Shown here piece after piece: positions 5,396-11,272 of a stretch of 64,000 nucleotides of DNA. Position numbers and translations under genes: made by a program. Origin of the DNA: Escherichia coli (GTDB taxonomy: Bacteria > Pseudomonadota > Gammaproteobacteria > Enterobacterales > Enterobacteriaceae). The notes beneath the pieces were generated by a model, which was given only the letters and a program-made list of their open reading frames with translations, was not told the origin of the DNA and made no database searches. How positions within the stretch are numbered: position 1 is the first letter of the stretch; each line of letters starts with the position of its first letter. The stretch is from the NCBI RefSeq assembly GCF_030013595.1, contig NZ_CP122768.1; one strand, given 5' to 3'.

Positions 5396-5420
5396 GGGCG
5401 CCAGAAATGGCGCCTTTTTT
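5396..5420 (+). terminator. Rho-independent terminator after J
   Basis: GGCGCC-AGAAAT-GGCGCC hairpin followed by TTTTTT. Confidence 0.6.
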
Positions 5421-5444
5421 ATTGCAGAAAAGCGAGAGGTAATT

Positions 5445-6044
5445 ATGCGTAAAGTTTGTGCAGCCATTTTGTCCACAGCCATCTGTCTGGCCGTATCCGG
5501 TGCGCCTGCATGGGCGTCTGAGCAGCAGGCCACACTGAGCGCAGGGTATCTTCATGCCCGTACGAACGCTCCCGGCAGCGATAATCTGAACGGGATTAAC
5601 GTGAAATACCGTTATGAGTTTACGGACACGCTGGGGCTGATTACGTCATTCAGTTATGCCAACGCTGAAGATGAGCAAAAAACGCATTACAGCGATACCC
5701 GCTGGCATGAAGATTCCGTGCGTAACCGCTGGTTCAGCGTAATGGCGGGGCCGTCTGTGCGCGTGAATGAATGGTTCAGCGTGTATGCGATGGCGGGTGT
5801 GGCTTACAGCCGTGTGTCGACTTTCTTCGGGGATTATCTCCGCGTAACTGACAACAAGGGGAAAACGCACGATGTGCTGACCGGAAGTGATGACGGTCGC
5901 CACAGCAACACGTCTCTGGCGTGGGGGGCTGGCGTGCAGTTTAACCCGACCGAATCCGTGGCCATTGATATTGCTTATGAAGGCTCCGGCAGTGGTGACT
6001 GGCGCACTGACGGTTTCATCGTGGGTGTCGGTTATAAATTCTGA
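5445..6044 (+). CDS. lom: Lom outer-membrane protein (Ail/Lom/OmpX beta-barrel family), prophage moron
   Basis: 199 aa with signal peptide and C-terminal ...GVGYKF beta-barrel ending; sits between J and stf as in lambda. Confidence 0.9.
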
Positions 6045-6070
6045 TTAGCCAGGTAACACAGTGTTATGAC

Positions 6071-6098
6071 AGCCCGTCGGTTCAGGCGGGCTTTTTTG
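6071..6098 (+). terminator. Rho-independent terminator after lom
   Basis: GC stem (gcccg/cgggc) followed by TTTTTT just before stf. Confidence 0.55.
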
Positions 6099-6108
6099 TG
6101 GGGTGAAT

Positions 6109-9100
6109 ATGGCAGTAAAGATTTCAGGTGTACTGAAAGACGGCACAGGAAAACCGGTACAGAACTGCACAATCCAGCTGAAAGCAAAACGTAACAGCAC
6201 CACGGTGGTGGTGAACACGCTGGCCTCAGAAAATCCGGATGAAGCCGGGCGTTACAGCATGGACGTTGAGTACGGTCAGTACAGCGTTATTCTGTTGGTG
6301 GAAGGATTCCCGCCGTCACATGCCGGGACCATCACCGTGTATGAAGACTCCCGACCCGGTACGCTGAATGATTTTCTCGGTGCCATGACGGAGGATGATG
6401 CCCGGCCAGAGGCACTGCGCCGTTTTGAGCTGATGGTGGAAGAGGTGGCGCGTAACGCGTCCGCGGTGGCACAGAACACGGCAGCCGCGAAGAAGTCAGC
6501 CGGCGATGCCGGCACATCAGCCCGTGAGGCGGCAACCCATGCGACTGATGCTGCAGGCTCAGCACGCGCAGCCAGCACGTCAGCCGGACAGGCCGCGTCG
6601 TCGGCTCAGTCAGCGTCTTCCAGCGCAGGAACGGCATCAACAAAGGCCAGTGAAGCATCGAAAAGTGCTGCTGCTGCAGAGTCCTCAAAAAGCGCGGCAG
6701 CTACCAGTGCCAGTGCCGCGAAAACGTCAGAAACGAATGCCGCAGCGTCACAACAATCAGCAGCCACTTCTGCATCCACCGCGACCACGAAAGCGTCAGA
6801 AGCTGCCACCTCAGCCCGGGATGCGGCGGCCTCAAAAGAGGCAGCGAAATCATCAGAAACGAACGCATCCTCGAGCGCCAGTAGCGCAACTTCCTCGGCA
6901 ACGGCGGCAGGAAATTCCGCGAAGGCGGCAAAAACGTCCGAGACGAACGCTAAGTCTTCTGAGACGGCAGCGGGACAGAGCGCCTCAGCTGCGGCAGGCT
7001 CAAAAACAGCGGCTGCATCATCTGCCAGCGCCGCGTCAACAAGTGCCGGGCAGGCCTCAGCCAGTGCCACCGCCGCCGGAAAATCGGCAGAAAGCGCCGC
7101 ATCATCCGCTTCAACAGCCACAACGAAGGCTGGCGAAGCCACTGAACAGGCCAGCGCAGCAGCGAGTTCTGCTTCCGCAGCGAAGACATCCGAAACGAAC
7201 GCGAAAGCGTCGGAAACCAGCGCAGAATCCTCAAAAACGGCTGCCGCATCGTCAGCCAGTTCGGCGGCGTCATCGGCATCATCGGCGTCTGCTTCAAAAG
7301 ATGAGGCGACCAGACAGGCGTCAGCAGCGAAGGGCAGCGCCACGACAGCATCCACGAAGGCGACAGAGGCAGCTGGTAGTGCGACAGCGGCAGCTCAGAG
7401 CAAAAGTACGTCGGAATCTGCAGCAACGCGTGCCGAGACAGCAGCAAAACGGGCAGAGGATATTGCATCTGCCGTGGCGCTTGAGGATGCGAGCACGACG
7501 AAAAAGGGGATAGTACAGCTCAGCAGTGCGACCAACAGTACGTCTGAAACGCTGGCGGCAACGCCAAAGGCAGTAAAATCAGCCTATGACAATGCAGAGA
7601 AACGTCTGCAGAAAGACCAGAACGGCGCTGATATACCCGATAAGGGACGCTTCCTGAACAACATTAACGCGGTCAGTAAAACAGACTTTGCTGATAAGCG
7701 TGGTATGCGTTATGTGCGGGTTAACGCTCCTGCAGGTGCAACATCTGGAAAATATTACCCTGTTGTTGTTATGCGTTCTGCTGGCTCAGTAAGCGAACTG
7801 GCATCAAGGGTCATTATCACCACGGCAACGCGAACCGCAGGCGATCCGATGAATAACTGCGAGTTTAACGGATTTGTTATGCCTGGTGGCTGGACTGACA
7901 GGGGGCGTTATGCTTATGGAATGTTCTGGCAATATCAAAACAATGAACGAGCCATCCACTCAATAATGATGAGTAATAAGGGCGATGATTTGCGCTCTGT
8001 GTTCTATGTTGATGGCGCTGCTTTCCCTGTTTTTGCGTTTATCGAAGATGGCCTGTCAATATCCGCACCTGGTGCTGATCTCGTTGTTAATGATACGACC
8101 TATAAGTTTGGGGCAACAAATCCAGCGACTGAATGTATCGCGGCGGACGTTATCCTTGATTTTAAGAGTGGGCGTGGTTTTTATGAGTCTCATTCGTTAA
8201 TCGTTAACGATAATTTGTCGTGCAAAAAACTTTTTGCCACAGACGAAATTGTAGCGCGTGGTGGTAATCAGATTCGAATGATAGGTGGGGAGTATGGTGC
8301 ATTATGGCGTAATGATGGCGCTAAAACTTACCTGCTGCTTACCAATCAAGGTGATGTTTATGGTGGCTGGAATACATTAAGACCGTTTGCTATTGATAAC
8401 GCAACCGGCGAACTGGTTATTGGAACCAAACTGTCCGCAAGTCTGAACGGTAATGCATTAACAGCAACAAAGCTGCAAACGCCAAGACGGGTTTCTGGTG
8501 TTGAGTTTGATGGTTCCAGAGATATTACTTTAACCGCCGCGCATGTGGCTGCTTTTGCCAGAAGGGCAACGGATACATATGCCGATGCGGATGGTGGCGT
8601 TCCCTGGAATGCCGAATCAGGTGCTTACAATGTCACCCGCTCTGGCGACAGCTATATTCTGGTTAACTTCTATACCGGAGTCGGAAGTTGCCGGACCCTG
8701 CAGATGAAGGCGCATTACAGAAATGGTGGTCTGTTCTACCGTTCTTCAAGAGACGGTTATGGTTTTGAGGAAGACTGGGCAGAAGTTTATACCTCGAAAA
8801 ATCTTCCACCAGAAAGCTACCCAGTCGGCGCACCAATCCCGTGGCCATCAGATACCGTTCCGTCTGGTTATGCCCTGATGCAGGGGCAGACTTTTGACAA
8901 ATCTGCTTACCCGAAACTTGCAGCCGCTTATCCGTCAGGCGTGATCCCTGATATGCGTGGCTGGACGATTAAGGGCAAACCTGCCAGTGGTCGGGCCGTA
9001 TTGTCTCAGGAACAGGACGGCATTAAATCGCATACCCACAGCGCCAGCGCATCCAGTACGGATTTGGGGACGAAAACCACATCGTCGTTTGATTACGGCA

Positions 9101-9459
9101 CTAAATCCACGAATAACACCGGGGCGCATACCCATAGTGTTAGCGGTACGGCTGCTTCAGCCGGTGCACATACCCATTCGATGACATTTGTTTCAGGTGG
9201 TTCCAGTGGTGCTCCGGGAAGTGGAGCATCTGATTATTCTAAATACAGTGTTAACACTTCTTCTGCAGGCGCTCATACGCACTCTGTATCGGGTACTGCT
9301 GCAAGCGCAGGTGCACACGCACATACTGTGGGTATTGGTGCTCATACGCACTCCGTTGCGATTGGTTCACATGGACACACCATCACCGTTAACGCTGCTG
9401 GTAACGCGGAAAACACCGTCAAAAACATCGCATTTAACTATATTGTGAGGCTTGCATAA
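6109..9459 (+). CDS. stf: Side tail fibre protein Stf (long form)
   Basis: ORF track starts at a GTG (6103); likely ATG at 6109 giving [17 protein letters not shown]... Contains a long Ala/Ser/Thr-rich repeat region and a C-terminal His-rich GAHTHS repeat block. Confidence 0.9.
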
Positions 9460-10034
9460 TGGCATTCAGAATGAGTGAACAACCACGGACCATAAAAATT
9501 TATAATCTGCTGGCCGGAACTAATGAATTTATTGGTGAAGGTGATGCATATATTCCGCCTCATACAGGTCTGCCAGCAAACAGTACCGATATTGCACCGC
9601 CAGATATTCCGGCTGGCTTCGTGGCTGTTTTCAACAGTGATGAGTCATCGTGGCATCTCGTTGAAGATCATCGGGGTAAAATGGTTTATGACGTGGCTTC
9701 CGGCGACGCGTTATTTATTTCTGAACTCGGTCCGTTACCGGAAAATGTTACCTGGTTATCGCCGGAAGGGGAGTTTCAGAAGTGGAACGGTACAGTCTGG
9801 GTGAAGGATACGGAAGCAGAAAAACTGTTCCGGATCCGGGAGGCGGAAGAAACAAAAAACAGCCTGATGCAGGTAGCCAGTGAGCATATAGCGCCACTTC
9901 AGGATGCTGTAGATCTGGAAATCGCAACGGAGGAAGAAACCTCATTGCTGGAAGCCTGGAAAAAGTATCGGGTGTTGCTGAACCGTGTTGATACATCAAC
10001 TGCACAGGATATTGAATGGCCAGCACTGCCGTAG
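9459..10034 (+). CDS. tfa: Tail fibre assembly protein Tfa
   Basis: 191 aa, start overlaps stf stop (TAATG); Tfa-family chaperone immediately after stf. Confidence 0.9.
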
Positions 10035-10131
10035 GGTAAAACATATAAATTCTATAATTAGATGTATCTTTCCATTTACGGCAAGGAAGGGGGCTTGGAA
10101 GACGTAAAGCATCTCACACCGAGATTATTTT

Positions 10132-10722
10132 TTATATGTCAGGTGTCTGAAGTTTTGCTTTGGCTCTTAAAATGGTTTGCCGCGAGGTTTTGAATTCCCG
10201 GGCAATGGCACTTATACTTACACCTGACTTAATTCGTTCGAATACCACCTGTTTCTGTTCTTCATTTAACACAGGTGGTCGACCAAAACGTTTCCCTGCG
10301 CCGCGGGCTCTTACTATCCCGGAATGAGTGCGTTCAAGTAAAAGGTCTCGTTCAAATTCAGCGACTGCTGAAATTACGTGCATCATCATTTTTCCTGTTG
10401 GACTGGTCAGGTCAATGCCCCCCAATGCTAAGCAATGCACTCTGATACCTGTTTCGGTCAGTTGTTCCACTGTTTTCCTGATATCCATTGCATTACAACC
10501 AAGGCGATCCAGTTTTGTCACAATCAATTGATCACCACATTTCAGGCGAGCAAGCAACCGGTTAAAACCAGGACGCTCACTGGTTGCTGCTGAGCCGCTA
10601 ATGTGTTCTTCGATTATTTGCTGAGGTTTGATTTTAAAACCTGCACTTTCGATTTCCCGGCGTTGATTTTCGGTGGTCTGATCCAGCGTTGATATCCGAC
10701 AGTAAGCAAAAATTCGAGACAT
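10132..10722 (-). CDS. pin: Pin-type serine DNA invertase (Hin/Gin/Cin family)
   Basis: 196 aa [15 protein letters not shown]... with resolvase catalytic Ser region and C-terminal HTH; convergent with tfa, as pinQ/pinR in K-12 prophages. Confidence 0.9.
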
Positions 10723-11038
10723 AGTGAGACTCTATACGAAATTGGTGTTCATATCATAATGCATCTCAGAAAATAATTTTGATTATTTTTGTGCATATTT
10801 GTATGTACACGTTCGAAAATAAACGAATGCGTATGCAACCCCGTAATTTTGGTGAGACCCAAAATCGATTTTGTGAAAAATGGCTTTAACTCGGTTTGTT
10901 TTTCGAGTTCCGGGCAGACTCAAGGAAGAAGAATAGTGTTGCGTGTTATTTTAACCAGATTTCAATTTGTTTGGTCGTGGAAAAGTGGAGCAAAATGTTG
11001 TTAAAGTGGAAAAATGATAAAAAAGTAAGTTTGTTATA

Positions 11039-11272
11039 TTACATTTTACCATTTAAATTTTGGTTGTCTTTAAGAACTGATATCGCTGTTTGTAATAATT
11101 CTTTGTTATCCAGCCATGATTTTTTCTTTATGTTTCCTTCAATGTAATCAAGCAATGTTCTGGTATTGATAGGTCTTCCCTGTTTTGCTACTTCCACTAC
11201 AGCATCCCCTAGGATAATTCTTACTTCAGGAAGCTGCGCAGGGAACCACTTTAGGGTGTCTTTTGATTTCAT
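11039..11272 (-). CDS. ydfK: Prophage cold-shock-induced protein YdfK/YnaE family
   Basis: ORF track gives 88 aa; product recalled as 77 aa starting MKSKDTLKWFPAQLPEVRIILGD, so the start is placed at 11272. Confidence 0.7.
   Translation of the reverse strand: MKSKDTLKWFPAQLPEVRIILGDAVVEVAKQGRPINTRTLLDYIEGNIKKKSWLDNKELLQTAISVLKDNQNLNGKM

Follow-up and report, generated by a model that had tools for sequence, protein, structure and literature searches.

What does a gene annotated as a DNA invertase do beside a single tail-fibre assembly gene, with nothing evident to invert? The question is raised by a stretch of 64,000 nucleotides of Escherichia coli DNA (contig NZ_CP122768.1 of assembly GCF_030013595.1; "the window" means this whole stretch), in which the recombinase gene pinQ lies next to tfa, the tail-fibre assembly gene that follows the side tail-fibre gene stf. 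An earlier note on this DNA took the recombinase for a Pin invertase of the kind carried by Mu, P1 and e14, perhaps an orphan. We conclude, with a probability of about 80%, that pinQ is the resolvase gene of an 834-base-pair (bp) fossil of a Tn3-family transposon and is not a tail-fibre-switch invertase. If so, the missing second fibre/tfa cassette needs no special explanation, because the gene would not come from a fibre-switch system.

The recombinase groups with transposon resolvases

The gene is as follows.

10132..10722, minus strand: pinQ, a TnpR-type small serine recombinase of 196 amino acids (Pfam Resolvase and HTH_7; Ser11 codon at 10690-10692, Cys76 codon at 10495-10497)

The name pinQ, like the names tfaQ, ydfK and ynfT for its neighbors, comes from the annotation of identical sequence in complete genomes. 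PinQ has an N-terminal catalytic domain (Resolvase, E = 4e-36) and a C-terminal helix-turn-helix, and this architecture, which is common to invertases and resolvases, does not discriminate between them. NCBIfam does not separate PinQ, PinE, and transposon TnpR either: it assigns all three to the same generic models, with scores well under the cut-offs. The best match among solved structures is Gin (4m6f, E = 2e-30).

Sequence identity is more informative. Gin, Cin, Pin, and Hin are roughly 60% or more identical to each other. The identity of PinQ is 38% to PinE (of e14), 36-39% to Gin, and about 32% to gamma-delta resolvase. By closeness it falls outside the Din family, with 36-39% identity to Gin and PinE as against 77-84% to the tnpR products of transposons and plasmids. 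Proteins that are 77-86% identical to PinQ are abundant in Enterobacterales and beyond, and about 1650 plasmids carry copies that are 60-90% identical (tblastn).

The relatives at 77-84% identity lie divergent from Tn3-family transposases of 994 amino acids, with a res region between the two genes. For example, on pAA-ST131 (locus L005), a relative of PinQ and a divergent Tn3-family transposase are separated by 160 bp. For protein P0014 (84% identical to PinQ), a divergent 994-residue protein with DUF4158 and DDE_Tnp_Tn3 domains was found 160 bp away in 7 of 8 sampled contexts. For P0100 (78% identical), the full divergent transposase was present at 160 bp in 6 of 8 contexts, and the other two had truncated copies. 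Taken together, 13 of the 16 sampled contexts have the full 994-residue transposase. This transposase scores 1193 bits against the NCBIfam model NF033527, "Tn3 family transposase" (cut-off 500).

In the Tn3 family, cointegrates are the product of TnpA, and recombination by TnpR between two res sites in direct repeat then resolves them. The relatives have the corresponding parts. They are bounded by 38-bp terminal repeats (GGGGTCCGCTTGGAAAACGGAAAATATCCCACGCTAAG), and a compact form of 3815 bp, made up of tnpA, res, and tnpR alone, has perfect copies of these. Independent insertions of complete relatives are flanked by 5-bp duplications (AATAT, TAATA, AAGTA, and TAGAT). Their tnpA-tnpR intergenic regions contain five to seven half-sites of the TGTMCGAAA type, at fixed positions and in three pairs, which is the res organisation of the Tn3 family. 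A literature search with the terminal-repeat sequence, intended to name the transposon, returned just one unrelated paper.

On these comparisons, the gene is pinQ, an orthologue of tnpR, rather than a Din-family Pin, and it does not descend from a fibre-switch system. The premise of the earlier note, a Pin of the Mu/P1/e14 type, is not borne out: PinQ has 38% identity to PinE versus 77-84% to recombinases that are paired with tnpA and res, and its gene lies inside Tn3-type repeats of its own.

A probable decayed Tn3-family element around pinQ

pinQ lies within an 834-bp element (10089-10922), where res and then tnpR are enclosed by a terminal repeat on either side. Its parts are listed here.

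10084..10088: target-site duplication AGGAA, left copy, abutting the element
10089..10123, plus strand: IR-a, a degenerate Tn3-family terminal inverted repeat (GGGGGCTTGGAAGACGTAAAGCATCTCACACCGAG), identified by alignment to GGGGTCCGCTTGGAAAACGGAAAATATCCCACGCTAAG, with its outer end, GGGG, at 10089
10733..10835, minus strand: remnant of a decayed res that is colinear with the relatives' subsites III, II, and I, identified by alignment to tnpA-tnpR intergenic regions
10860..10873: perfect 14-bp palindrome CAAAATCGATTTTG, with no second exact copy in the window, located between IR-b and the res remnant
10885..10922, minus strand: IR-b, the second degenerate terminal inverted repeat (TGAGTCTGCCCGGAACTCGAAAAACAAACCGAGTTAAA), identified by repeat comparison, with its outer end at 10922
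10923..10927: target-site duplication AGGAA, right copy, abutting the opposite end of the element

BLAST aligns the window to the 3815-bp transposon at 82% nucleotide identity from res site II through pinQ, ending 7 nucleotides short of the transposon's terminus. IR-a, which lies in this terminal region, matches the 38-bp repeat at 27 of 38 positions (aligned by hand, with a 3-nucleotide deletion), and the relatives have the same gap of 8 nucleotides between the repeat and the stop codon of the recombinase. This transposon end makes up about half of the spacer between tfa and pinQ.

At the other end, IR-b matches the upstream repeat of a plasmid mini-element (locus L003, described below) at 26 of 38 positions, and about 0.003 such matches are expected by chance in the window. 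By hand count, IR-b matches the consensus repeat at 23 of 38 positions and the repeat of the L042 type at 27 of 38. Both repeats have the positions and the orientations that are predicted for repeats of this family (GGGG...ACGYTAAG). Furthermore, the left module of the element (IR-b, about 60 bp, and site I) is colinear with the repeat, spacer, and site I modules on plasmids. The AGGAA copies form a 5-bp direct repeat, which is the length of duplication that the family makes, and the pair is kept in the Qin and Rac prophages of K-12, in phages, and in divergent alleles.

The res remnant keeps two of six half-sites (TATACGAAA at 10733-10741 and CGTTCGAAA at 10810-18), while functional relatives have five to seven. 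The two survivors are where site III and the pinQ-proximal half of site I are expected; the other half of site I is unrecognisable. The remnant is only a relic, and we do not expect it to function. No remnant of tnpA was found in the window (tblastn with the 994-residue TnpA gave nothing better than E = 0.44), and the element is therefore a non-autonomous derivative.

We also considered the palindrome CAAAATCGATTTTG as a crossover site or as site I of res. We rejected it as a candidate, because the alignment of the relatives puts site I at 10810-10835; the palindrome instead belongs to the part that corresponds colinearly to the left-end module of the plasmid copies.

A changed catalytic residue and relaxed constraint

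In PinQ, the DRLGR motif reads DRLGC, and Cys76 aligns with R71 of the Tn3 and gamma-delta resolvases. Among 120 best cluster representatives, only five clusters, all of the prophage type, have Cys76, and all of the others have arginine. The cysteine is also present in K-12 PinR and in the phage copies. Of Tn3 resolvase's active-site residues (Y6, R8, S10, D36, R68, and R71), PinQ has the counterparts Y7, R9, S11, and R73. The D36 position is glutamate throughout the PinQ clade and the R71 position is Cys76, so the active-site set is incomplete.

In Tn3 resolvase, the substitutions R71A and R71K abolish recombination and reduce cleavage about 1000-fold, while binding to site I persists (PMC2794168). 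By analogy, PinQ is probably a poor catalyst or none, and would at most bind residual sites; it may retain DNA binding.

Between two diverged lineages that both have Cys76, the ratio of non-synonymous to synonymous substitution rates (dN/dS) is 0.34-0.38 (33-35 non-synonymous and 25-28 synonymous changes). This is below 1 (p < 0.001, from a rough chi-square test on those counts). Comparisons between transposon-borne copies give 0.05-0.16. Constraint on pinQ is relaxed but not gone.

A probable single insertion, widely inherited

Of 5426 complete E. coli genomes, 2730 match an 844-bp stretch around pinQ over at least 80% of its length, in nearly all cases at an identity of 99% or higher. The arrangement of tfa, a 97-bp spacer, and a convergent pinQ or pinR also occurs in the Qin and Rac prophages of K-12 and in the viable phages Turner, 2H10, and PhiR63_1. 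All of the copies of the element that we examined have the same flanks on both sides, which points to a single ancestral insertion. We looked for independent insertions of the mini-element among these copies and found none, nor any sign of current mobility.

These observations suggest the following history. In intact relatives, the 994-residue TnpA makes cointegrates, and TnpR resolves them at site I of the res region, with its six half-sites, between the divergent genes, as is established for the Tn3 family. An ancestral lambdoid phage would have received an element without tnpA in its non-essential b region, immediately downstream of tfa, with duplication of AGGAA, and every Qin/Rac-type copy examined would descend from that insertion. 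Later decay would account for the present state, with no transposase, two degenerate repeats, four of six res half-sites gone, and the arginine equivalent to R71 changed to Cys76. The element would now be immobile and PinQ would have no partner site at the locus. The sequence homology, the contexts of the genes, the repeats and the duplication, the changed residue, and the distribution are observed; from these we infer that PinQ has lost its activity and that it has no role in fibre switching.

Several points weigh against this history. IR-b is weak (23-27 of 38 positions) and ends in TGAG in place of GGGG. IR-a and IR-b match each other at only about 17 of 38 positions (hand count), which is why they escaped both the eye and the repeat search. 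We infer the insertion rather than see it: no uninterrupted empty site (the tfa flank joined to the ydfK flank with a single AGGAA) was found in the 5426 E. coli genomes, phage records, IMG/VR, or metagenome contigs. The loss of activity attributed to Cys76 is extrapolated from Tn3 resolvase. Also, thousands of genomes and some working phages (such as Turner and 2H10) carry the open reading frame intact, and a dN/dS of about 0.36, being below 1, means that some function is probably retained. Finally, a published inversion assay with PinQ, discussed below, speaks for an active enzyme.

Other observations concern exchange around the element. In phage PhiR63_1 (L008 1-2477), a different tail-fibre module (a side fibre and three hypothetical genes) takes the place of stf and tfa, but a 110-bp stub of the 3' end of tfa and the pinQ element are retained, which places a boundary of modular exchange inside tfa. 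Because the module was swapped while the stub and the element were kept, the insertion is older than the exchange.

Between prophage sub-lineages, the coding sequence of pinQ is about 99% identical, while the upstream part (the res remnant, IR-b, and the ydfK side) differs by about 10% (window 10723-10935 compared with L007 and L008). This implies a recombination boundary near the start codon of pinQ. In another E. coli genome (GCA_910593615.1; L038 6001-6591), a pinQ in prophage context is chimeric: residues 1 to about 185 resemble the TnpR of plasmid transposons, including Arg76, and the last residues are PinQ-like. The chimera suggests that a plasmid-borne transposon of the Tn3 family and the prophage relic have undergone gene conversion.

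No invertible fibre segment in the window

The earlier note had reported a single tfa, no second inverted tfa-like open reading frame, no clear crossover sites, and a tfa-pin spacer of 97 bp, and our searches agree on each point. Searching both strands of the window with Tfa (tblastn) returned just Tfa itself. With Stf and the recombinase as additional queries, there were three matches, each of a query to itself, and every non-self match had E of 0.4 or more. The coordinates of the open reading frames give a spacer of exactly 97 bp (10035-10131), with the recombinase gene convergent with tfa. An inverted-repeat search of 5400-12100 found only short pairs of low identity, at the level expected by chance.

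Repeat and motif searches of the window found no site resembling gix or pix. The Din-core pattern AAACCNNGGTTT occurs 33 times, as compared to 31 expected, and none of these fall within stf or tfa or in the spacer between tfa and pinQ. At up to three mismatches, the window contains no match to the e14 pix repeat CCTTCTCCCAAACCAA. As a positive control, both patterns recovered both pix sites of e14 in K-12, which are 1797 bp apart:

L002 3786-3806 and 5604-5624: K-12 e14 pix sites (control), recovered by the same two patterns

The note's interpretation stands only in part. There is no local invertible tail-fibre segment, as the note had said, but the premise of an enzyme of the Mu/P1/e14 type that should have one is not supported. 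The upstream side of pinQ faces away from the fibre genes. Moreover, Qin/Rac-type prophages normally have an orphan pin next to one tfa, and have long been annotated in this way.

Alternative explanations

PinQ might be a domesticated DNA-binding protein, derived from TnpR and kept for regulation instead of recombination. We see this as a real possibility, although an unlikely one. It could, for example, regulate its own gene, modulate other recombinases, or interfere with related transposons or with res sites on plasmids. The intact open reading frame in the 2730 genomes and in viable phages fits such a role, as does a dN/dS below 1 between two lineages that both have Cys76. The helix-turn-helix region of PinQ is close to those of functional relatives, and binding to site I survives in Tn3 resolvase when R71 is mutated (PMC2794168). 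This reading could also reconcile the pinE dependence that is apparent in a recent study of PinQ (Kirigo et al., NAR 2025; PMC12529663). On the other side, most of the half-sites in its own res have decayed. The low dN/dS could partly reflect recombination with transposon-borne copies, of which the chimera in L038 is an example.

In its broadest form, this proposal would make PinQ and PinR a catalysis-impaired, domesticated TnpR that acts as a DNA-binding modulator in half of E. coli genomes, which we regard as quite doubtful. If it were true, PinQ could favor one orientation when PinE drives inversion, and the need for pinE in the 2025 paper would then be explained. Alternatively, PinQ could bind incoming plasmids and related transposons of the Tn3 family at their res or promoter region.

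The study by Kirigo and colleagues proposes instead that PinQ is an active invertase that acts in trans on the pix sites of the e14 P segment, giving a chimeric StfE2 that blocks adsorption of phage T2. According to the paper, survivors of T2 that carried pCA24N-pinQ had the 1797-bp P segment inverted. Inversion of the segment, as measured by quantitative polymerase chain reaction, was 30% in the wild type and 88% with pCA24N-pinQ, and the cells were protected from T2. Deleting stfP, stfE, or e14 abolished the effect of PinQ (PMC12529663). The PinQ of the window is identical to K-12 PinR but for one residue.

Other results in the same paper argue against direct action by PinQ. In Table S4, inversion was 1.5% in a pinE deletion in which pinQ and pinR were intact, and 22% in a pinQ deletion (versus 30% in the wild type). 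The value of 88% was obtained in a pinE+ background, and the paper itself describes pinE mutants as locked. The accessible parts of the paper and its supplement contain no trial of PinQ in a pinE-deleted background and no mutant of the catalytic serine (PMC12529663).

Sequence comparisons argue in the same direction. PinQ has cysteine at the R71 position, and the TGTMCGAAA-type half-sites that its relatives bind are absent from the pix sites. A colinear P segment of the e14 type with pinE was found in at least 170 of the 5426 genomes (a lower bound, because inverted P segments are split by the search and are not joined into one match), as compared to 2730 with the pinQ element. The suggestion in the earlier note that the invertase acts on sites that could not be resolved has its published version here, in trans on e14, but it is weakened by the lack of any pix site in the 64-kilobase (kb) window. 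Overall, we consider it unlikely that PinQ inverts the P segment itself. The ancestry of the gene, the change from arginine to cysteine, and the pinE-deletion result call into question the 2025 claim that direct inversion of e14 by PinQ is an anti-phage defence.

A degraded inversion system of the Mu/P1/e14 type, whose invertase survived while the alternative cassette and the crossover sites were deleted, is very improbable: pinQ does adjoin stf and tfa as the genes of Mu, P1, and e14 do, and some relatives have a second, partial tfa beyond ydfK (Turner, L001; UTAK-10, L039), but these extra fragments are direct rather than inverted and lie outside the element, the upstream side of pinQ points away from the fibre genes with no remnant of a crossover site, Tn3-type repeats and a 5-bp duplication flank the gene, and its closest relatives are tnpR genes of transposons and not Din invertases.

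Comparison with known systems

The reading of pinQ as a relic of a Tn3-family resolvase gene applies equally to K-12. Its pinQ (in Qin) and pinR (in Rac) have the layout of the window: stf, tfa, a 97-bp spacer, a convergent pin, ydfK or ynaE, and ynfT or ynaM. They also have the same repeats, the same duplication, and Cys76, and the protein in the window is one residue away from K-12 PinR. The window prophage has full-length stf, lom, and J, as in Rac, whereas K-12 Qin is truncated; we expect no functional difference from this. In K-12 (NC_000913.3; L009 and L010), pinR is at 1433084-1433674 on the minus strand and pinQ is at 1633622-1634212 on the plus strand, 200 kb apart and in inverted orientation.

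The compact 3815-bp transposons on plasmids of Enterobacterales (L021, L023, L025, and L028), and the passenger-carrying forms (L005 and L013), have recombinases with 84% identity to PinQ in protein and 82% in DNA. They also have the same type of 38-bp repeat, the same gap of 8 nucleotides after the tnpR stop codon, res upstream of tnpR, and a 5-bp duplication. In contrast, the element in the window has no tnpA, has degenerate repeats and a degenerate res, has Cys76 for arginine, and lies in a phage b region instead of a plasmid.

Non-autonomous plasmid elements are closer in architecture. The IncI-type plasmid pS84-1 carries an 852-bp element (L003 4786-5637) with the order repeat, res, tnpR, repeat, with neither tnpA nor a target duplication. 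The left end of this element (about 90 bp, repeat and spacer) is found on about 3500 plasmids of Escherichia and Klebsiella (for instance at L041 2501-2589 and L042 2501-2600), and on one IncF plasmid, a left-end module of this type adjoins pemK/pemI. The pS84-1 element and the left-end modules have the same tnpA-less architecture as the element in the window and a colinear left-end module. However, the pS84-1 copy has an intact res, Arg76, a perfect right repeat, and no target duplication, and the copy in the window is only 56-62% identical across the left module. Other non-autonomous derivatives of the Tn3 family are likewise bounded by terminal repeats of the family type, according to the accessible parts of their descriptions. 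Compared to these, the element in the window keeps its recombinase gene and a res remnant, and all of the copies examined are at one site.

With Gin of Mu, Cin of P1, Pin of e14, and Hin, PinQ has in common the small serine recombinase fold, the C-terminal helix-turn-helix, and the tail-fibre neighborhood. Unlike them, the pinQ locus has no 26-bp crossover sites (core AAACC-NN-GGTTT), no invertible segment, and no alternative cassette; also, the conserved arginine is lost and the gene is oriented the wrong way with respect to the fibre genes.

The orphan pin arrangement is already known. For the Tn3-family origin, the repeats and the duplication, and the change to Cys76, we found no description in the searchable literature; in papers on plasmids, "pinR" appears only as an automatic annotation of Tn3-associated resolvases. 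Our reading would revise that of K-12 pinQ and pinR, which are named and annotated as DNA invertases and which roughly half of the complete E. coli genomes carry. It would also mean that a Tn3-family element has been fossilised inside lambdoid phage genomes and is carried by viable phages. We view this as a useful re-annotation and not as a new kind of system.

The surrounding prophage

The window contains the right arm of an E. coli Qin/Rac-type lambdoid prophage, with the gene order J, lom, stf, tfa, pinQ, ydfK, ynfT, and then a truncated ydfJ-like transporter gene. The features that flank the element are listed here.

6103..9459, plus strand: stf, side tail-fibre gene, an open reading frame of 1118 amino acids (Pfam phage_tail_N, Gp34_trimer, Collar, and Phage_fiber), phage context outside the element
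9459..10034, plus strand: tfa, tail-fibre assembly gene (Pfam Caudo_TAP, E = 1e-43), the sole tfa-like sequence in the window
10035..10083: the portion of the tfa-pin spacer that derives from the phage, kept with the 3' flank of tfa in all related prophages and phages
11039..11305, minus strand: cold-shock gene of the ydfK/ynaE type, an open reading frame annotated as ydfK in identical genomes, the flanking phage b-region gene upstream of pinQ, with the same order in K-12 Qin and Rac

The partial second tfa of some relatives is at L001 3954-4085 in phage Turner and at L039 5557-5769 in E. coli UTAK-10. It corresponds to the C-terminal part of the gene and is 86% identical to window positions 9867-9998. 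It is found some 2.6 kb past pinQ, toward ydfK, in the same (direct) orientation as tfa. The prophage in the window ends before this point and lacks the fragment.

The middle of stf (window 6500-7500) is repetitive and rich in alanine and serine, and it gives rise to many long spurious open reading frames in other frames and on the opposite strand, such as 6506-7513 (plus strand) and 6606-7355 (minus strand). At the other side of the locus, an open reading frame for an MFS transporter (ydfJ-like, 427 amino acids; window 12057-13340) abuts the end of the prophage, much as ydfJ adjoins Qin in K-12, and likely marks an attachment-site junction near 11.5-12.0 kb.

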